From NCBI GenBank assembly GCA_903907175.1, contig CAIVNB010000026.1, positions 1 to 43,339 of the forward strand: DNA of 43,339 nt, given 5' to 3'. The stretch comes from an uncultured bacterium (GTDB lineage Bacteria > Patescibacteriota > Minisyncoccia > Phycocordibacterales > UBA9973). How positions within the stretch are numbered: the first letter of the stretch is position 1; the number at the start of each line of letters is the position of its first letter. The position numbers and the translations under genes were made by a program. The notes under the pieces were generated by a model that saw only the letters and a list, made by a program, of their open reading frames with translations, was not told the origin of the DNA and searched no databases. This document shows positions 845 through 41,395 of the stretch, one piece after another.

Positions 845-2104
845 ATGCAAGTCAAAGATTTGAAAAAATTTAAGTTGTCTGATAAGCCAGGAGTTTATTT
901 TTTTAAAAAAGGAAAGACAATTTTGTATATTGGAAAAGCGACATCTTTGCGAGACAGAACAAAGAGTTATTTCAGCAAAGATTTAATCGCTACTCGGGGT
1001 CCGATGATATTAGATATGGTTGTGCAAGCAGATAAAGTTGATTGGGAAATGTCAGACAGTGTTCTCGAAGCTTTAATTCTTGAAGCAGAACTAATAAAGA
1101 AACATCAACCGAAATATAATGTAAAAGAAAAAGATGATAGATCTTGGAATTATGTTTGTATAACTGCAGAGAAAATTCCTAGAGTAATTATTGTAAGAGG
1201 CAAAAATTTACAATCTACGCCATGGCGTAGATCTAAAACTTACGGACCGTATACTAATGGCTTGCAATTAAAAGAAGCATTAAGAATAATTAGAAAAATA
1301 TTTCCTTTTCTTGATGAAAAATCAAAAAATAATTACGAGTTTTATAGGCAAATAAAACTTGTTCCAGAAAACGAAGATTATCTTAAAAATATAAAGAATA
1401 TAAAATTATTTTTTGAGGGAAAGAAAAGGAAAATCTTAAAGGATTTAGAAAAAGAAATGAAAATGCTTGCTAAAACACAAAAATTCGAAAGAGCGAATGA
1501 TGTCAAAAAGCAAATTTTTGCACTACGACACATTAATGACATTGCTTTAATAAAAAGTGAAAGCCTCACCTCTTCCAATTTTTCAGTCCTGCGCCCTTCT
1601 CAGAGTACTGAGTGGGACCCTCGGACATTCAAAATTGAAAGAGGTTCGATTTTCGATGTGTTCCGCATTGAAGCTTATGACATTGCGCATATGTCAGGCA
1701 AAAATATGGTTGGGGTGATGACGGTGATAGAAAATGGAGAAGTTCAAAAGAGTGAATATAAAAAATTTATTATTCGTACACAAAGTAGCAGTAATGATAC
1801 GGGTGCACTTGAAGAAGTTTTGTCACGTAGACTGCGTCACACGGAATGGGGATTACCAAATTTAGTAGTGGTGGATGGTAGTGTTGCTCAAATCAACACA
1901 GCAAAGAGAGCATTAAATAGATATCAATTTAAAATACCAATCATCGGAGTTGTGAAAGATGATAAACATAGAGCGAAAGCTATACAAGGTGATGAGACAA
2001 TAATAAAAAAATACAAAAAAATAATTTTACTTGCGAATAGTGAAGCCCATAGATTTGCGATAAAATTCTATCGTTCAAAAAGTAGAAAAAATATGTTAAA
2101 ATAA
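845..2104 (+). CDS. uvrC: Excinuclease ABC subunit C, short form (419 aa) with no C-terminal (HhH)2 region
   Basis: GIY-YIG N-terminus (GVYFF..ILYIGKA), UVR motif (FERANDVKKQIFALRHI), endonuclease core RIEAYDIAHMSG. Directly follows uvrA. Confidence 0.85.
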   Translation: MQVKDLKKFKLSDKPGVYFFKKGKTILYIGKATSLRDRTKSYFSKDLIATRGPMILDMVVQADKVDWEMSDSVLEALILEAELIKKHQPKYNVKEKDDRSWNYVCITAEKIPRVIIVRGKNLQSTPWRRSKTYGPYTNGLQLKEALRIIRKIFPFLDEKSKNNYEFYRQIKLVPENEDYLKNIKNIKLFFEGKKRKILKDLEKEMKMLAKTQKFERANDVKKQIFALRHINDIALIKSESLTSSNFSVLRPSQSTEWDPRTFKIERGSIFDVFRIEAYDIAHMSGKNMVGVMTVIENGEVQKSEYKKFIIRTQSSSNDTGALEEVLSRRLRHTEWGLPNLVVVDGSVAQINTAKRALNRYQFKIPIIGVVKDDKHRAKAIQGDETIIKKYKKIILLANSEAHRFAIKFYRSKSRKNMLK

Positions 2105-20724: not shown

Positions 20725-20761
20725 CAAAATAGTTATTCGAACATCACCCCACGTCTGGAGC
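20725..20761 (+). repeat. Copy A (5' part only) of the repeat family also at 21583-21660 and 23505-23593
   Basis: 31 of 37 nt identical to 23505-23541 (CAAAATA.T.ATTCGAACATCA.CCCA.GT..GGAGC). Confidence 0.6.
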
Positions 20762-20802
20762 AATTTAAAAAACTACAAGAGATTGTGGTTTTTAAATTGC
20801 TC
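20758..20802 (+). other. Long hairpin at the island's right end
   Basis: GAGCAATTTAAAAA pairs perfectly (14 bp) with TTTTTAAATTGCTC. It extends through CTACAA/TTGTGG around a GAGA loop. Confidence 0.6.
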
Positions 20803-20807
20803 GGGAG

Positions 20808-20831
20808 AGAAAGCCAACTGCTTGGCTTTTG
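20808..20831 (+). terminator. Rho-independent terminator candidate just inside attR
   Basis: AAGCCAA, loop CTGC, TTGGCTT, then TTT. Confidence 0.5.
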
Positions 20832-20920
20832 TGTAGGGATCGAAAAGCTTTTCTGTATTTTTGAAAATTTCTGATTTTTAAAAATTAGAAAAGGTATACT
20901 GCTCCTGTAAGGAGAGATCA

Positions 20921-21582: not shown

Positions 21583-21660
21583 TTCAAACATCATCCCAAG
21601 TTCGGAGCTCTTGATTTTTTTATTAATTATGTTATTGTACGAATAGTAACAGTTTTTTGA
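21583..21660 (+). repeat. Copy B of the ~80-bp repeated element (contains a promoter-like core at 21611-21638)
   Basis: 21587-21660 is identical over 74 bp to 23520-23593. Inside it: TTGATT, 16 nt (TGt), TATTGT. Confidence 0.8.
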
Positions 21661-21743
21661 AAATGTGATAAATATTGTTTGGTCTATTAAGTTTCTTTAT
21701 AGAGATTTAGTTGACCAAATAATATTCACTAAAACCCCAAAAA

Positions 21744-22247
21744 ATGAAACTTTACGAGAATTTTGAAAAAGGTACACCAGAGTATGTTTTTTATCATGGA
21801 CTTTACCAAATTGAAATAGGTAAAAAACCATCTGCTCTTCTTTCTAAGTATTACTGTATCAGTGAAAATCCAATAGAAGTTTTTGATTTGGCTAAATCGC
21901 TGGTAAAAGATTGCTCCACTGAAGAAAAAAAGGATTCTATTTCGGGAAGACCATTTCTTCGTACTGAAATTGACTGGGAGAAAAAGTACCAGCAACATCT
22001 AGCTGGGCCTAATTCTGATATACCATTTGACCCTGTATCAGGTATTTATGAATGCAAATGTTCCCTCTGCTTTTACAGAGATGCTCCTAAGGAATTTAAC
22101 CCAAAGAAGGATTGCCAGATTGGGAAAAAAGGCGATCTAGCTAAAATTTTTTTTGGTATTGATTCTAATGAATTTCTTCCTGAAGTTATTGATGGGAAAG
22201 AAGTTGCACATTATTGCCCTTACTGGTTAACGTTTTTGGCTGAGTAG
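21744..22247 (+). CDS. Hypothetical Cys-rich protein (167 aa)
   Basis: ORF with the cluster CKCSLC...C...C in its C-terminal half. No recognised family. Confidence 0.5.
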   Translation: MKLYENFEKGTPEYVFYHGLYQIEIGKKPSALLSKYYCISENPIEVFDLAKSLVKDCSTEEKKDSISGRPFLRTEIDWEKKYQQHLAGPNSDIPFDPVSGIYECKCSLCFYRDAPKEFNPKKDCQIGKKGDLAKIFFGIDSNEFLPEVIDGKEVAHYCPYWLTFLAE

Positions 22248-23504: not shown

Positions 23505-23593
23505 CAAAATACTCATTCGAACATCATCCCAAGTTCGGAGCTCTTGATTTTTTTATTAATTATGTTATTGTACGAATAGTAACAGTTTTTTGA
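23505..23593 (+). repeat. Copy C (full length) of the repeated element (promoter-like core at 23544-23571)
   Basis: Its 5' 37 nt matches copy A and its 3' 74-78 nt matches copy B. Internal imperfect inverted repeat TACTCATTCG / CGAATAGTA. Confidence 0.8.
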
Positions 23594-23685
23594 CATTTGG
23601 TTTTATTGGTTTTCGTAGAAGGTAAATTTTGTCTTTTACGAAGACCAATTAAAACTTTTATAAAAACAATTTAAAATTCTGGAAA

Positions 23686-28982: not shown

Positions 28983-31900
28983 ATGAAAAAAATTAGTTCT
29001 GAATTTTTGTCTAAGAAATTAAAGCTTTTTGAAGTTTTAATTTTCTTTTCTATTTTAATAATTATTACCATAGTTGGAAGATCAATTTTTGCAGACGATG
29101 TTCCTGCCGCTCCGACAAATTTGACTGTAAATGGAACTCCAACTTCTACGGTTGTTTCGCTCCAGTGGGTAGATAATGCAAGCAACGAAGATAGGTTTAA
29201 TATCGATAGAAAATTAAGTACAGCAACAGATTGGACTTCTGTTACTCAAATTCAGCAACCAGATGTAACTTCTTATATTGATACATATAGTTTTGTTCCT
29301 GGAACTTCTTATGATTATCGAGTTCAAGCTTGTTTGTCAGGAACGGGATGTTCTGAATATACAGTACTTACTGGAGTTCAAATTCCAGTAGCAACACCGA
29401 TTCCTCCAACAGGGTTGGTACTAAACGGTACTCCAACATCTGTAACTGTTCCACTTATGTGGTCAGAAACTTCTACCGGTATATCATTTTTTGCTGTGGA
29501 AAGAAAAGTTACTGGGGCAACTTCAGATTTCATTCAAGTCGGTGCACCGACGGGTATGGTATATATTGACCAATACGCTTTTGTTCCAGGAACTTCTTAT
29601 GACTATCGAGTGAAAGCATGCATTTCAACTACCATGTGTTCTACATATAGTAGTGTTTTAACAGTTCAAATTCCAACGTCAGGTGGTGGTGGGACGCCTA
29701 CCCCTCCAACAAACTTAACGTACGGTGCTATAACATATTCAACCGTTCCACTTACATGGTCTGAAACTTCTACTGGCATACTATATTATGTTCTTGAAAG
29801 AAAATTAACATCAGGTTCTTCGTCTTTTTTACAAGTTGGTCAGCCAACAGGAATGTCATACACTGATACATATAGTTTTGTTCCTGGAACTTCTTACGAT
29901 TACCGAGTAAAAGCTTTTAATGGTTCAAATTATTCGGCGTACAGTAGTATTCTCTCAGTTATGATTCCAGGTGGTGGCAATAATCCACCCCCACCTCCTT
30001 CAACCTTAACTTATAATACAACTGGAACTATGCCACCAGTAATTCTTAACTGGACGATGCAGTCAGGCACGGGTATGAACATGTTTAATCTCCAGAAAAG
30101 AATAACTGGCACTTCGGCATTTTCTCCTATTGCATCCCTTGGATATTCTGTTTTGACATACACAGACGCAAATGTTGTTTCTGGAACGTCTTATGATTAT
30201 CAGATAAATGCATGTATGTCTGGAAATACAAATTGCTCCGCGTTTACGCAGTTGATTGGTGTTCAAGTTCCGGGCGGAGGGGGTGGGGGCATTCCAGCTG
30301 CGCCGACAAATCTTACTGCCACAGTCAATGGGAATAATGTTATCTTAAACTGGACCGACAATTCTTCTAATGAAGCAGGGTTTAAAATTTATCGTGGCCC
30401 GACTTGGACGGATATCGGCAATGTTGGTACGAACATAACAACCTTTACTGACGTGAACCGTCCAGCTGGTACTACTTGGACATATCACATCAATGCTTTT
30501 AATTCAAATAATGTTTATTCTCCGATTTCCAACGACGTTTCGGCTACCATTCCAACCGGTGGTGGTGGAGGAGGAACTCCAGTAGCGCCAACAGGACTCA
30601 TAATAAACGGAACTGTTACTTCTACTTCTGTTCCACTTATATGGACCGATAATTCTAGCATTGAAGATAGTTTTAAAATTTATAGAAGATTGGTATGCAC
30701 TCCTTCTTGTACTTACATGTTTCTTTCTTCAACAGCTTCTAATATAGTTACTTTTAGTGACACGACTGTTTCTCCAGGATTTTTTTACGATTATCAAGTG
30801 CAAGCTTGCTTGGGAACAAATTGTTCAAGTTATATTACTTTGACAGGAGTTTCAGTCCCGACTTCTGGTAATGGTCAAAATATTCCTAATCCACCGACAG
30901 GACTTGCTCTAAATGGAACTATAACTTCTAACTCAGTTCCACTTCACTGGACAGACAACTCTAATAATGAGGATAGTTTTAAAATTGAAAAGAAAATCAC
31001 TGGGTCAACTACAAACTTTGGCTATATTGGTCAAGTTGGAACTAGTATTACTAATTTTACTGATACGGTAGTTACGCCAGGTACATCATATGACTATCGC
31101 GTACAAGCATGTTTAAATAGTGTAGGTTGTTCAACATACTCTATATTATCAGGAATCTTAGTTCCAACATCAGGAAGTGGTGGTGGAAGCGGTAGTGGCA
31201 ACATACCTCTATCTCCATCAAATCTTGTACAAGCAAATACGACAACAGGAGTAGGTATTTCTCTACAATGGACAGATAATTCTAGCAACGAAGATAAATT
31301 TAATATTGAAAGGAAATTAAGTACAGCCAGTGTTTGGTCTACCCTTATTCAAATTCAACAACCAAATGTAACTTTTTATACAGATATGTCTGTTCTAGTG
31401 AATTTATCTTATGACTATCGTGTGCAGGCTTGTTTATCTGGAACCGGTTGCTCTCCATATGTTACTTTATCGGGTGTTTTAGTTCCAAATAATAATATGA
31501 ATTTTCCGTCTGTTACAGCTCCGACCTATACTTCTGTCCTTTATACATCAGTAATTTTAGGAGCAAGTGTAACTTCTTTGGGTACTTCTGCTTTATTGTT
31601 TCGTGGGACTTGTTTGGGAACTACACCTGCTCCAACGACAAATTGTATAGACGCATCTGGCACAGGGATTGGTACATTTACACATATCAGGACAGGGTTA
31701 ACAGCAGGTACTACATATTTCTTTCGTGGTTATGCGACAAATGCAAATGGTACAGCGTACTCTCAAGATAGTACATTTACGACTCTTAATATTTCCCCAA
31801 ATATTCCAGCTGCTCCAACGAATTTAATATTAAACAATATTTCAACTCCAGCATTTATGTCCATTTACTGGACAGACAATTCTAACAACGAAGACAAATT

Positions 31901-33473
31901 TAACATAGAAAGAAAATTAAACAGTGCAAATTCATGGGCTCCTCTTTCCCAGGTTGGTTCAAATATTATTTTTTATATTGACACGACAGCTATCCCAGAT
32001 CTTTCTTATGATTATCGAGTTCAAGCTTGTCTGTCAGGAACGGGGTGTTCTAGCTATGCTTATTTATATAATAAAAAAATTATTACCACCCTTACTACAG
32101 TTCTACCAACATCGGGGACTACTGCTGTACCTTTACCTACAACAACAAATCAAATAAGTCCAAATTCTGGGGTTGCCGCTTCTGGTCCTAACCCAACACA
32201 AAATACTAATATAATTCCAAATACTCCAGCAAATAACATTCCAACAACCTTAGATACGTTACCAGTAAATAATATTGAACCAAATCCTTCTGTTTCTGTA
32301 AGCGAAGCGCCTATGCCTAGTGAAACATCTAATAAAACAGATTCTCAGGTGGATACTTCTATTTCTGCTCCTCCGACTGAAACTTCTCAAAAAATTCAAA
32401 ACCTAGGACTTGTGGTTGAGAAAATGAAAAAAACAGTAAATGATACAAAGGAGCAGTTAGAAAAAACAATTAATGAAAATGTTAATGAAATAATTAAAAC
32501 TATTGAAGCTAGGGGACAAAAAATTGATGCTGGTAAGATATATATTTTACGAGATGAACTTATTAATAAAATAGATTCAACTTTATTGTCATTGGCAGGT
32601 GCTATTACCACGGAAGACATAAATAATTTAGAAAAAGAGATTAATAAAGGAATTGATAATATAAAAACAATTGCCGTTGAAAATGCAACATCTGAAAGTG
32701 TAGCTATAACACAAATAAATAATAGTACGAGTTTCGGAGATATTACTCAAACATTAAATACATTATCTCAAACAGTAAGTACTCAAAATGAAGCACTAAA
32801 GAGTCAAGGAGGAGATCTTCTTTATAAGGATACCAACAAAGACGGAATTTCTGATTATGATTCGGTTTATGTTTATAATATGAATCCGACGACACCGTCC
32901 CCAGTTTCCAGCTATGAAGGGAAAGACATCAATGCCGGGGATAAAATTATATTAGGGTTTAATCCAGCTTTATCTGAAATAGTTAAAGTGGAAAAAGAAC
33001 AACCGGTGGAAGCTCCTGCTCCTGTCGTTTCCACTTATAAAGTGAAAGAGATGGCACTAACAGAAAAGAAGGAAGTTGTCATAAAAGGTCAGGCACTACC
33101 TAATAGTTTTGTGACGATATATATTTACAGTACGCCTATTATGGTTACTGTTAAAACAGACAGTAAGGGAGAGTGGCAATATGTTTTGAATAAAGAGTTG
33201 GAAAACGGGGATCATACTATCTACACTGCGTCGGTGAATAATTCAGGAAATATTATTGCAAAAAGTTCTGGGTATTTATTTACTAAGACAGCAGAAGCTG
33301 TGACTTTAAAAGATGCACCTCTCATAGGAGCTCCGATAGAAGCAAATAGGCCTGGATTACTGGACGGTATCAATCTTTACATAATTATTATTGCTTTTCT
33401 GGCAATAATAATATTAATTTTGATTCTTATTGGGATAAGTAATAAAAAGAATAAAGAACAAGTTGGAAATTAA
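28983..33473 (+). CDS. Giant surface protein: about 11-12 fibronectin-type-III-like repeats, a low-complexity stalk, an Ig-like domain and a C-terminal TM anchor
   Basis: Recurring ~100-aa unit P.PTNL...W.D.S.NE..F.I.R.......GTSYDYRVQAC. N-terminal signal or anchor and C-terminal IIIIAFLAIIILILILIG. Confidence 0.8.
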   Translation: MKKISSEFLSKKLKLFEVLIFFSILIIITIVGRSIFADDVPAAPTNLTVNGTPTSTVVSLQWVDNASNEDRFNIDRKLSTATDWTSVTQIQQPDVTSYIDTYSFVPGTSYDYRVQACLSGTGCSEYTVLTGVQIPVATPIPPTGLVLNGTPTSVTVPLMWSETSTGISFFAVERKVTGATSDFIQVGAPTGMVYIDQYAFVPGTSYDYRVKACISTTMCSTYSSVLTVQIPTSGGGGTPTPPTNLTYGAITYSTVPLTWSETSTGILYYVLERKLTSGSSSFLQVGQPTGMSYTDTYSFVPGTSYDYRVKAFNGSNYSAYSSILSVMIPGGGNNPPPPPSTLTYNTTGTMPPVILNWTMQSGTGMNMFNLQKRITGTSAFSPIASLGYSVLTYTDANVVSGTSYDYQINACMSGNTNCSAFTQLIGVQVPGGGGGGIPAAPTNLTATVNGNNVILNWTDNSSNEAGFKIYRGPTWTDIGNVGTNITTFTDVNRPAGTTWTYHINAFNSNNVYSPISNDVSATIPTGGGGGGTPVAPTGLIINGTVTSTSVPLIWTDNSSIEDSFKIYRRLVCTPSCTYMFLSSTASNIVTFSDTTVSPGFFYDYQVQACLGTNCSSYITLTGVSVPTSGNGQNIPNPPTGLALNGTITSNSVPLHWTDNSNNEDSFKIEKKITGSTTNFGYIGQVGTSITNFTDTVVTPGTSYDYRVQACLNSVGCSTYSILSGILVPTSGSGGGSGSGNIPLSPSNLVQANTTTGVGISLQWTDNSSNEDKFNIERKLSTASVWSTLIQIQQPNVTFYTDMSVLVNLSYDYRVQACLSGTGCSPYVTLSGVLVPNNNMNFPSVTAPTYTSVLYTSVILGASVTSLGTSALLFRGTCLGTTPAPTTNCIDASGTGIGTFTHIRTGLTAGTTYFFRGYATNANGTAYSQDSTFTTLNISPNIPAAPTNLILNNISTPAFMSIYWTDNSNNEDKFNIERKLNSANSWAPLSQVGSNIIFYIDTTAIPDLSYDYRVQACLSGTGCSSYAYLYNKKIITTLTTVLPTSGTTAVPLPTTTNQISPNSGVAASGPNPTQNTNIIPNTPANNIPTTLDTLPVNNIEPNPSVSVSEAPMPSETSNKTDSQVDTSISAPPTETSQKIQNLGLVVEKMKKTVNDTKEQLEKTINENVNEIIKTIEARGQKIDAGKIYILRDELINKIDSTLLSLAGAITTEDINNLEKEINKGIDNIKTIAVENATSESVAITQINNSTSFGDITQTLNTLSQTVSTQNEALKSQGGDLLYKDTNKDGISDYDSVYVYNMNPTTPSPVSSYEGKDINAGDKIILGFNPALSEIVKVEKEQPVEAPAPVVSTYKVKEMALTEKKEVVIKGQALPNSFVTIYIYSTPIMVTVKTDSKGEWQYVLNKELENGDHTIYTASVNNSGNIIAKSSGYLFTKTAEAVTLKDAPLIGAPIEANRPGLLDGINLYIIIIAFLAIIILILILIGISNKKNKEQVGN

Positions 33474-34109: not shown

Positions 34110-34230
34110 GTTTATTGTATTTTTAGTTTCAGAGTCATTCTAACATAAATTTCTTATTTGACAAGTCAAGAATTGTTTTGTATTATATAAGTGAATATAA
34201 GTACTTTGAAAAAAGTTTTGGTTCTTTTTT

Positions 34231-34274
34231 GTTAATTATTCTAAGGGTCTTTGGGGATTTTTAGAATAATTAAC
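34231..34274. promoter_or_regulatory. Perfect 14-bp inverted repeat (operator or RNA hairpin) upstream of the PAS kinase
   Basis: GTTAATTATTCTAA, 16 nt, TTAGAATAATTAAC. Ends 35 nt before the ATG at 34309. Confidence 0.5.
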
Positions 34275-34308
34275 AAAATGAATTAAACCAAAAAATAATA
34301 AGAACTTT

Positions 34309-36803: not shown

Positions 36804-36839
36804 CAAAACAGCTCCGACTATATAGTCGGAGCTGTTTTG
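36804..36839 (+). terminator. Rho-independent terminator
   Basis: Perfect hairpin CAAAACAGCTCCGACTA / TAGTCGGAGCTGTTTTG, then GTTTT. Confidence 0.75.
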
Positions 36840-39159: not shown

Positions 39160-39687
39160 ATGAGAAAACATGATTTAGCTTTTATTGACATAGAAACAAC
39201 CGGTCTTAGTGTTATAGAACATGAGATTATTGAGATTGGTGGTGTAATAACTAATTATAAACTTGAGATTAAAGAAAAGTTTGAATTAAAAATAAAACCT
39301 AAAAATATTGAAAACGCAAATAAAACAGCTTTAAAAATAAATCATTACAACGAAAAAGACTGGAAAGAGGCGTATGAATTAAAAGATGCATTAAAAATTT
39401 TTTCTAAAAAAGTGAAAGATTGTATTATGGTTGGGCAAAATATTGCTTTTGATTCTGGGTTCTTGGAATATAATCTTGAAAAGAATAATATAAAAAATAG
39501 TTTGCACTACCATAGGCTAGATACCATATCTATTGCTTGGACGAAGTTTCATGACGATAAAAATTTTGAACATTTTTCCTTAAGAGAAATGTGTAAATAT
39601 TTTAATATAAAAAATGAAAATCCACACAGTGCTCTTTCGGATGCTAGTGCTACTTATTTACTTTATAAGAAACTTTTGGAAATATAG
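39160..39687 (+). CDS. DEDDh 3'-5' exonuclease (DnaQ/epsilon-like)
   Basis: ExoI FIDIETTGL, ExoII GQNIAFDSGFL, ExoIII HSALSDA. Confidence 0.8.
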   Translation: MRKHDLAFIDIETTGLSVIEHEIIEIGGVITNYKLEIKEKFELKIKPKNIENANKTALKINHYNEKDWKEAYELKDALKIFSKKVKDCIMVGQNIAFDSGFLEYNLEKNNIKNSLHYHRLDTISIAWTKFHDDKNFEHFSLREMCKYFNIKNENPHSALSDASATYLLYKKLLEI

Positions 39688-39696
39688 AATTATTAC

Positions 39697-39729
39697 AAAA
39701 GAGCCCCGACATTTTGTCGGGGCTCTTTT
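39697..39729. terminator. Bidirectional terminator between convergent genes
   Basis: AAAAGAGCCCCGAC, loop ATTTT, GTCGGGGCTCTTTT. Confidence 0.75.
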
Positions 39730-40177: not shown

Positions 40178-41395
40178 ATGGTTATTATAACAATAATGGA
40201 TAAAAATAGGAATAAAACAGTATTTGTAGGTATGTCTGGAGGTGTAGATTCGAGCGTGTCTGCGGCACTTTTAAAAGAACAGGGTTATAACGTCGTTGGG
40301 GTTTTTATCAAAACTTGGCACCCTCCATTTTTAGCCTGCAACGAAGAAGAAGAGCGTCGTGATGCAATGCGAGTTTGTGCACATTTAGATGTTCCATTTT
40401 TGACTTTTGATTTTGAGGACGTATATAAAAAAGATGTCGCAGATTATATGATTTCTGAATATAAGAAAGGAAGAACTCCGAATCCAGATGTAATGTGCAA
40501 TAAATATGTTAAATTTGGCGCATTTTTCAAAAAAGCACTTGCAATGGGTGCAGATTATGTAGCGACAGGACATTATGCACGAACTTCAGCAGAAAATGCT
40601 TTTACTCAGGTCCTCGGTTCCTCGCCTAAGGCTCAGCCAGACCATTCGCAAAAGCATTTTCTGCTTTCGTTATTGAAAGGCAGTGACCCTTCTAAAGATC
40701 AAAGTTATTTTCTTTGGACCTTAAGACAAGAACAGCTTTCAAAAATCTTATTTCCAGTAGGGCATTTAAAGAAAAGTGACGTAAGAAAATTAGCAAATAA
40801 ATTTAAACTACCTGTAGCAGAAAAAAAAGATAGTCAAGGAATTTGTTTCTTAGGTGCCGTTGATTTGAAAGATTTTTTAAAACATTATATAAAAGAAAAG
40901 AAAGGGAAAGTTTTAAATGAAAAAGGAGAAGAAATCGGATTTCACGATGGAGTTGTCTTTTATACTTTTGGCGAGCGACATGGATTTACTATTACAAAAA
41001 AAAGTCCTATCGATGGGCCATATTATGTTGTTGCAAAGGATATAAAGAAGAATCTCTTGATAGTATCACAAAACAGAAACTATCTTAAAAAGAGTACAGA
41101 TATTTTTTTACTAAAAAATTCCTCGTGCTCGGACCAGTCGTCCTCGCAAGTCTATTTTAAAGATAATTTTTGTTTTGTTCTAGAAAATGTAAATTGGATT
41201 GCTGATATTCCAGAAGAAAATAAAAATTATACTGCTCAAATTCGTTATCACGGAGAGTTATTTCCTTGTATAATAAAGATTATTAACAAAACAAAGGCAG
41301 AAATAATTTTTAAAAAACCCATTTTAGCTGCTTCTGGCCAATCTATTGTTATTTACGATGAAAATGTTTGTGTGGGAGGAGGTGTAATTATATAA
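40178..41395 (+). CDS. mnmA: tRNA-specific 2-thiouridylase MnmA, carrying two in-frame GC-rich insertions
   Basis: PP-loop GMSGGVDSSV, NPDVMCN, ATGHYAR, KDQSYFL, C-terminal GQS.V.Y......GGG.I. Confidence 0.85.
   Translation: MVIITIMDKNRNKTVFVGMSGGVDSSVSAALLKEQGYNVVGVFIKTWHPPFLACNEEEERRDAMRVCAHLDVPFLTFDFEDVYKKDVADYMISEYKKGRTPNPDVMCNKYVKFGAFFKKALAMGADYVATGHYARTSAENAFTQVLGSSPKAQPDHSQKHFLLSLLKGSDPSKDQSYFLWTLRQEQLSKILFPVGHLKKSDVRKLANKFKLPVAEKKDSQGICFLGAVDLKDFLKHYIKEKKGKVLNEKGEEIGFHDGVVFYTFGERHGFTITKKSPIDGPYYVVAKDIKKNLLIVSQNRNYLKKSTDIFLLKNSSCSDQSSSQVYFKDNFCFVLENVNWIADIPEENKNYTAQIRYHGELFPCIIKIINKTKAEIIFKKPILAASGQSIVIYDENVCVGGGVII

Follow-up and report, generated by a model that had tools for sequence, protein, structure and literature searches.

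An in-frame hairpin in mnmA of an uncultured Patescibacteriota bacterium probably belongs to a dispersed family of small palindromic repeats

Analysis of a 43,339-nt stretch of DNA from an uncultured bacterium of the Patescibacteriota (contig CAIVNB010000026.1 of assembly GCA_903907175.1, forward strand; the whole stretch is called the window here) revealed a 78-nt hairpin inside the gene mnmA, which encodes the tRNA 2-thiouridine synthase. With a probability of roughly 85%, this hairpin was a member of a family of small, dispersed palindromic repeats in Paceibacteria or “Nomurabacteria”-type Patescibacteria. Copies were scattered over many genes, and orthologous sites were filled in some relatives and empty in others. 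The elements were read in several frames and in both orientations, the frame of the host was strictly conserved, and the same permissive sites were reused by different families. Being repeated, palindromic, in frame, polymorphic and tolerated by the protein fold, they formed an in-frame palindromic class similar to the Rickettsia palindromic elements (RPEs). The conservation of the frame suggested that the element is translated, and its distribution suggested that it is or was mobile. The family numbers used below (1, 2, 3, 4, and 6) are labels of this analysis, in which the mnmA hairpin belonged to family 1.

The coordinates of the element and its parts are listed in Table 1. The first base of the element was the last base of a Ser codon, and reading through the hairpin gave the peptide SAENAFTQVLGSSPKAQPDHSQKHFLLS. 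Two motifs within the core, CAGGTCCTCGGTTC and CCAGACCATTC, defined the family. The G+C content of the element was 48.7%, compared with 32.5% for the remaining part of mnmA and 32.8% for the whole window. The RNA fold of the element was calculated as -33.4 kcal/mol (z = -6.3), and none of 200 shuffled sequences was equally stable. The helix extended from the arms into the core through the pairs GGUC/GACC, GGUU/AGCC, and GCC/GGC, closed by the loop UAA, and continued for 4 bp outside the arms. In 40 first-order Markov simulations of the window, not one perfect inverted repeat of 16 nt appeared when loops of up to 150 nt were allowed. The length of 78 nt was typical for these elements, whose hairpin span had a median of 87 nt (interquartile range 78-93). 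No second copy of the core was found inside the window at up to three mismatches, and the exact 30-mer of the core gave no matches in the reference genomes. The search of Rfam returned no family for the element, only sub-threshold matches resembling miRNA precursors, as for a generic long hairpin; elsewhere in the window it returned two tRNAs and nothing else. A sequence-only reading of this DNA had described perfect 16-nt arms around a 46-nt core with 28 G+C, which proved exact to the base. It had also described 26 codons without a stop in an AT-rich mnmA, as the 405-aa open reading frame (ORF) confirmed, and about 20 added residues between GHYAR and LLKG, for which the comparison with solved MnmA structures gave 19.

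The product of the host gene contained the tRNA_Me_trans HUP, PRC-barrel, and C-terminal barrel domains of Pfam and matched the MnmA structures 2hma, 9hlv, and 2der with E values of about 1e-81 to 1e-83. The nearest MnmA proteins were 63-75% identical; their sources were Patescibacteria assembled from metagenomes and labelled Nomurabacteria, Paceibacterota, or Parcubacteria. The protein of the window was found in identical form on 12 contigs. The 120 closest homologues were aligned at the position of the hairpin (site 1), and 81 loci were analyzed as DNA. Empty sites read GHYAQNIKNKLVKG, with the minimal form GHYAQNKN-FNLLKG in a few homologues (P0004, P0030, P0049, and P0095). Filled sites, taken from GHYA[QRK] to L.KG, contained 13-55 extra residues, which could be sorted into about ten peptide types without relation to one another; double inserts were present in three proteins. 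All 81 sites with DNA were in frame and free of stops, and about 20 of these loci were in the minimal 60-nt state. Inserts longer than 24 nt were present in 36 of 78 loci, and 21 of these inserts folded with z ≤ -3, many of them with stems of 16-25 bp.

Comparison of the DNA behind these peptides showed that the insert at site 1 is conserved as nucleotides and not as amino acids; the peptide types collapsed into a few core families. The peptides SQVLGS and SGPRF were frame-shifted readings of one core, and FLNGLAGVGDPENRGPEKK was the antisense reading of the same core, while NFSSLRPSPEYRGGTLGKLK and FELPEGPAPVIRGRAQGRK came from opposite strands of one further core. The mnmA inserts of the window and of locus L006 (A2) shared CTCGGTTCCTCGC...GCTCAGCCA, and their arms differed. 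In more distant Patescibacteria (L016, L037, L056, L026, L072, and L052), the MnmA loop at this site contained low-complexity tandem repeats, such as (GTCGAAA)n and (CAACCAA)n, and no hairpin element, which showed that the loop accepts other types of expansion as well.

The position of the insert was also analyzed in the protein. In solved MnmA structures, site 1 is a tight β-hairpin, GHYARVARDEDGT-VHMLRG, and the insert of the window was located at the tip of this hairpin. The AlphaFold2 model of the window protein had a mean pLDDT (predicted local distance difference test) of 74, and its longest internal stretches of low confidence, residues 140-159 and 304-328, were the products of the two elements in mnmA. 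Residues 140-159 were flanked by the strands 135-138 and 163-166, and residues 304-328, at the second site (site 2), had a pLDDT below 50. Shorter stretches of low confidence were located at residues 218-231 and 260-267. According to the Pfam boundaries, site 2 of MnmA and the filled site of UvrC described below were both interdomain linkers. By the structures, the model, and the domain boundaries, the two elements of MnmA were in places where the fold tolerates insertions, one at a β-hairpin tip on the surface and the other in a linker between domains.

The subtype of the core found in the window, defined by CAGGTCCTCGGTTC...CCAGACCATTC, was scanned as a motif in metagenomes and occurred at no fewer than 120 loci. 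Among the matches listed, 95 of 124 copies were located in long ORFs. The genic copies represented 81 unique contexts and at least 31 host clusters. Pfam identified the hosts as UvrD helicase, Pol I, RecJ, UvrB, SMC, UvrA, RsmA/KsgA, PheT, class-I aminoacyl-tRNA synthetase, TsaD, RNase R, class-V aminotransferase, amidase, YchF, and HIT protein. The closest relative of the window copy among the matches listed was not in an orthologue of mnmA; it was in uvrA of locus L302, with 89% identity over 73 nt. Family 1 was also found in at least six other long ORFs of the reference genomes. In a PheT-like gene on one metagenome contig (L353), two family-1 copies were observed at separate places, one read in sense as SGFSQVLGSPGPQPRPDHSKSH and the other in antisense as FLNGLAGVGDPGNRGPEKK. 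Viral contigs gave no matches to either core. The proposal of the sequence-only reading that the hairpin is an RPE-like in-frame palindromic element was thus borne out. The alignment of orthologues that it had suggested revealed empty and filled states of the site, and the suggested search with the core revealed many copies outside mnmA. The segment was not an ordinary loop conserved in its amino acids, the finding that would have spoken against the proposal, since one and the same core was read in several frames and orientations.

Two other elements were present in the window, and both belonged to families other than that of the mnmA hairpin at site 1. A library of 162 elements gave three solid copies in the window, at 1567-1647, 40588-40666, and 41073-41188. 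In the element at site 2 of mnmA, the core hairpin had decayed, and what was retained was an outer stem, imperfect and about 20 bp long. In the homologues, the linker at site 2 contained 25-29 residues when empty and about 51 when filled. The commonest insert at this site was KSTDIFLLKNSSCSRQSRSQVSFQDNFC, carried by most of the close homologues, and few of them were empty; families 1, 2, 4, and 6 also occupied the site. The third element, near the start of the window, was found as an outlier of a sliding fold calculation, and its host was identified as uvrC by Pfam. The library gave 54 hits to it, and its family-3 core, TCCTGCGCCCTTC...GTGGGACCCTCGG, was common to the mnmA insert of locus L004 (A1). 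In empty UvrC linkers, LIK.E was separated from FRIEAYD by 10-15 variable residues; linkers that were filled contained family 3, or family 1 in either orientation. All but one of the 65 uvrC sites were in frame and stop-free, and the sole exception contained a run of N.

Table 1. Features of the window discussed in the text, with positions on the forward strand
Feature	Position	Strand	Details
Third element (family 3), in frame in a short uvrC (ORF 845..2104), separating the UVR motif from the RNase H-like domain	1567..1647	+	Read ...SSNFSVLRPSQSTEWDPRTFKIERGS...
mnmA (tRNA 2-thiouridine synthase)	40178..41395	+	405 aa; Pfam and PDB matches
In-frame hairpin element in mnmA, site 1 (family 1)	40588..40665	+	78 nt; read as (S)AENAFTQVLGSSPKAQPDHSQKHFLLS
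Left arm	40588..40603	+	16 nt, AGCAGAAAATGCTTTT; T-tract end GCTTTT; 100% complementary to right arm
GC-rich core, imperfect hairpin by itself	40604..40649	+	46 nt; 28/46 G+C
Right arm	40650..40665	+	16 nt, AAAAGCATTTTCTGCT; A-tract start AAAAGC
Predicted translated stretch spanning the junctions of the site-1 element			TSAENAFTQVLGSSPK
Second in-frame element in mnmA, site 2, linker between the PRC-barrel and the C-terminal barrel	41068..41181	+	Read ...KKSTDIFLLKNSSCSDQSSSQVYFKDNFCF...; GC patch

Family 3 occurred at 88 loci in the reference genomes, nearly all of them in metagenome-assembled genomes (MAGs) of Nomurabacteria or Paceibacterota, and several genomes contained four to six or more copies. 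In 65 of 89 cases the copy was located in an open frame of at least 450 nt, in both orientations and all phases, and about 24 copies were apparently intergenic. The share of copies in ORFs was therefore about 73-77% for family 3 and for the window core subtype among the matches listed. The genic copies of family 3 fell into about 24 clusters of host genes, with uvrC as the most frequent host in the reference genomes (13 of 65). Several copies from different genomes, probably intergenic or in short ORFs (L082, L084, L090, L091, L097, L110, and L117), had the motif GCTTCGC in common. It occurred on each side of the stem, directly oriented, with an internal loop of 3 nt in between; these copies may represent intergenic sites that are orthologous, or a composite formed with a different repeat. 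A few loci with genes or elements of Patescibacteria type were also observed in MAGs labelled Burkholderiales (L105), Flavobacteriaceae (L057), and Azotimanducaceae (L071), which most likely reflects contamination of the bins by Patescibacteria contigs.

The anatomy of the copies showed which parts of the element are shared. The conserved unit of family 3 was about 70 nt long (87 copies) and read aAATTTTTcg-CCCTGCGCCCTTC-(mini-hairpin)-GTGGGACCCTCGGG-...AAAAATTt. The stems of the mini-hairpin were complementary and specific to each copy, with AGTA, ATTA, or TTCG as the loop. The conserved GC core was an imperfect hairpin with conserved bulges. All six of its frames were free of stop codons, and the core variants found in a given frame were those that were stop-free in that frame. 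A T-tract was located 5' of the core and an A-tract 3' of it. This order is the reverse of that in an intrinsic terminator on either strand, and it accounted for the recurrent F...K at the ends of the peptides. The shared parts were thus the inner T- and A-tracts and the core, and the outermost inverted repeats were not common to the family.

The outer arms were specific to each copy and were not shared even between copies of one genome. Their median length was 18 paired bp, the same in genic and intergenic copies, and 96-99% of the pairs were Watson-Crick when counted by geometry only. Across the copies at one site, 13 of 28 pairs changed on both sides; all of these were in the outer stem, and the pairs of the core were invariant. 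The complementarity of the two arms within a copy (0.81) was higher than the identity between orthologues (0.58). An excess of G·U pairs on the sense strand, which had appeared in the outer stems with RNAfold (42 G·U vs 11 A·C), was withdrawn as an artefact of detection; with geometry-only pairing, the type of mismatch followed the orientation of the element itself, as in a C·A conserved within a subfamily, and not the sense strand. The nearly pure Watson-Crick pairing of the arms favors copying at the DNA level over slow compensatory selection on RNA. Traces consistent with such copying were present at individual sites. At filled sites the palindrome reached from anchor to anchor, that is, from GHYA[QRK] to L.KG in MnmA and from K.E to FRIEAY in UvrC. 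In mnmA of L009, the left arm, read K-N-I-K, resembled Q-N-I-K of the empty site, and the right arm was an inverted copy of the left one. In uvrC of L162, the native K-S-E codons AAAAGCGAA were repeated exactly, in inverted form, as the right arm TTCGCTTTT. We infer that the arms were made or kept perfect by fold-back or template-switch copying, in which one flank is inverted, and not by selection on RNA pairing. In a UvrD-like gene, one family occupied the same site in opposite orientations in relatives whose flanks were about 84% identical, and the arm AATACTTTT was retained. Opposite orientations at one site were also found in mnmA, uvrC, RsmA, and PheT.

Several other explanations of the hairpin were weighed against a dispersed repeat. 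A structure of the mRNA or of single-stranded DNA selected at this very place, possibly to pause translation in aid of domain folding, to serve RNase processing or stability, or to imitate the tRNA substrate of MnmA for autoregulation, would agree with the very low folding energy, with the pairing kept through two-sided changes, and with conserved bulges in the core next to variable helices; in addition, more than 90% of the closest MnmA homologues had some hairpin at site 1. However, unrelated cores in both orientations occupied this site and some lineages had nothing there, the same cores recurred in at least 31 unrelated genes as well as outside genes, the almost purely Watson-Crick arms showed no G·U enrichment on the sense strand, and no Rfam family was matched, so that a local function of this kind was unlikely. 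An intragenic inverton, whose arms would let the core flip in place and give two protein variants within a population, was considered very unlikely. The opposite orientations observed in the UvrD-like relatives and in the four other genes are what an inverton would produce, and intragenic invertons have reportedly been documented in other bacteria in a 2023 bioRxiv study. On the other hand, the orientation differed only between species and never within one population, we know of no invertase for these elements, and the peptides were modelled as disordered loops in which a functional switch would not be obvious; moreover, flipping is the passive expectation for any segment between inverted repeats.

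The frame of the copies bore on whether the extra residues are present in the protein. A GC-rich hairpin in an AT-rich gene recalls the byp elements of Magnusiomyces mitochondria (mentioned in PMC6649704), and excising exactly 40588-40665 would leave GHYARTSSLLKG, in frame, so that an element removed like a tiny intron or bypassed by the ribosome could give a protein without the insert. An untranslated element would leave frame and stops unconstrained, contrary to what was found in 81 of 81 mnmA sites and 64 of 65 uvrC sites, which were in frame and stop-free at widely varying lengths. Copies in a given frame also carried the core variants that are stop-free in that frame, and no intron family was matched in Rfam. 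Removal or bypass was accordingly judged very improbable, and the analogy to ribosome-bypassed elements drawn in the sequence-only reading did not hold against the mnmA sites. The length of MnmA at this position varies among bacteria, as it would for an ordinary lineage-specific loop that is palindromic by chance; this idea, like that of an assembly artefact, had a negligible probability in view of the Markov simulations, of the identical protein on 12 contigs, and of homologous cores in independent assemblies, and the copies in other genes refuted it.

Some results weighed against a dispersed mobile family. No mobility event was caught, and no near-identical strain with an empty allele was found, as the exact left flank gave no metagenome matches. 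No target-site duplication was found: direct repeats of at least 3 nt abutting the stem occurred in 12% of cases, compared with 5% by chance, and had no consistent length. No autonomous parent, in which the two halves of the core would be split by a long insert, was found in 3.3 Mb of DNA selected for compact copies, and no candidate transposase was found. The identity of the units was 0.71 within genomes and 0.65 between genomes, which argues against recent bursts. The evidence for translation is the conservation of the frame. A bulged core with covarying helices is also expected of a functional structured RNA, and the UUCG-type loops of some copies fit RNA as well as DNA. If “orthologous” copies at the same site were in fact independent insertions, which could be the case, the argument for concerted evolution would be weakened.

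For the dispersed family, the following course would agree with the observations. An insertion with a length of 3n would be transcribed and translated straight through, given the stop-free core and the T...A order of the tracts. Selection would then retain only those insertions in which about 20-30 extra and probably disordered residues are harmless, such as the tip of the surface β-hairpin and the interdomain linker of MnmA. The conserved bulged core may be the recognition site of a putative enzyme. All of these features could be read together as an undescribed, Patescibacteria-specific hairpin superfamily with a non-classical mechanism of insertion or maintenance, a reading that we regard as possible but put forward only tentatively. 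In such a superfamily, the core would be recognized as a single-stranded hairpin by the putative enzyme, and the arms would be built from the target by fold-back synthesis, which would produce an inverted instead of a direct target duplication. The palindrome would then fill the entire unconstrained stretch between conserved residues. Time after time, the elements would enter the same small set of permissive loops in essential proteins, and they would flip there in place. If this were true, they would continually supply organisms that have minimal genomes with new surface peptides.

The elements were compared with known systems of short repeats. Among 728 RPEs of R. felis, 85 are located in ORFs (PMC1166351); RPEs are grouped into ten families, and fusions in frame are described for R. 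conorii (PMC10969869); RPEs are reported to lose the identity of their repeats over time (PMC6649704). Like RPEs, the elements described here were short palindromic repeats of several families, dispersed through both coding and non-coding parts of a small genome rich in AT, and were inserted in frame in unrelated housekeeping genes, apparently in a way compatible with the fold. Unlike RPEs, which are elements of Alphaproteobacteria with a length of about 150 bp and a conserved peptide in each, they were found in Patescibacteria, were about 78-105 nt long, combined a conserved GC core with near-perfect arms specific to each copy, and used all six frames. The reuse of the same sites by several families in both orientations, with flipping in place, was a further difference. 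No sequence relationship to RPEs was noticed in this comparison, which was made with their descriptions. As far as can be told, the element is not an RPE by descent, and it was not filed as a member of an RPE family.

[quoted passage not shown] The outermost inverted repeats of the elements here differed by copy, and neither a target-site duplication nor a parent in the 3.3 Mb of compact-copy DNA was found. Repetitive extragenic palindromes (REPs) are extragenic elements of 20-40 bp with a terminal GTAG or CGTC tag and are mobilized by RAYT (REP-associated tyrosine) transposases. Like REPs and bacterial interspersed mosaic elements (BIMEs), the present elements were imperfect multi-copy hairpins with conserved bulges, probably recognized as single-stranded DNA, but they spanned 78-105 nt and were mostly intragenic, and the flank profile of family 3 contained no conserved tetranucleotide head (GTAG or CGTC). 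The byp elements of yeast mitochondria are not translated and do not require a frame, and T4 gene 60 is a case of ribosomal bypass. The elements here resembled byp elements and the GC clusters of yeast mitochondria as GC-rich palindromic inserts in AT-rich coding sequence; unlike byp elements and T4 gene 60, they always kept the frame, and no features of bypass or of an intron were found. The MITEs that fuse in frame with host ORFs, such as Coxiella QMITE1, ERIC, and BOX (reviewed in PMC10969869), resemble the present elements in being small, non-autonomous, hairpin-forming, multi-copy, and in some cases intragenic. About 90% of the prokaryotic MITEs surveyed are intergenic (PMC11602168), whereas about three quarters of the copies here were located in ORFs. 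The coding palindromes of Nematomorpha mitochondria are near-perfect, translated in essential genes, and gained and lost between species, and they are apparently kept perfect by conversion or template-switch and not by function (PMC6649704). The elements in Patescibacteria were similar in being near-perfect inverted repeats in essential genes, apparently translated to judge from their frame, and gained and lost. The Nematomorpha palindromes, however, have no conserved core, do not form a dispersed family, and are located in an organelle genome; both of their arms encode native conserved protein, whereas the palindrome here adds about 20-30 loop residues.

Hairpins of other kinds were also present in the window. 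Further perfect inverted repeats of at least 14 nt with separate arms were located at 34227-34278, 36804-36839, 39697-39729, and 20758-20802. The sequence at 36804-36839 was a 36-nt perfect palindrome, and a GC-cored hairpin was located between two convergent genes, whose ends are at 39687 and 39732. Other long hairpins, perfect or nearly so, were found at 20741-20840, 21641-21750, and 23561-23670. These hairpins were outside every listed ORF of at least 90 aa and were therefore apparently intergenic, and they look like terminators. In an ORF of 1496 aa (28983..33473), a GC-rich patch at 30265-30300 encoded VQVPGGGGGGIPAAP and had a moderate local fold; it had no match among the 162 elements of the library and was therefore probably a native Gly-rich linker. 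An rRNA gene suspected at the end of the window was rejected, as the segment was an ORF running off the end.

No description of such elements in Patescibacteria was found in the searchable literature, which leaves out most subscription journals, so that a prior description is possible. The Patescibacteria, also called the Candidate Phyla Radiation (CPR), have tiny genomes that are usually regarded as streamlined. In-frame selfish hairpin repeats in genes of repair, replication, translation, and tRNA modification run against this picture. Many of the “lineage-specific insertions” in CPR proteins may be such elements, and elements that are not masked will be a source of error in alignments, phylogenies, and structure predictions. 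Arms that are perfect and particular to each copy, with no target-site duplication, suggest copying by fold-back or template switch. The presence, absence, and orientation of the elements at fixed sites could mark strains of uncultured lineages, and the unrelated peptides read in six frames at one loop are a natural experiment in loop tolerance.

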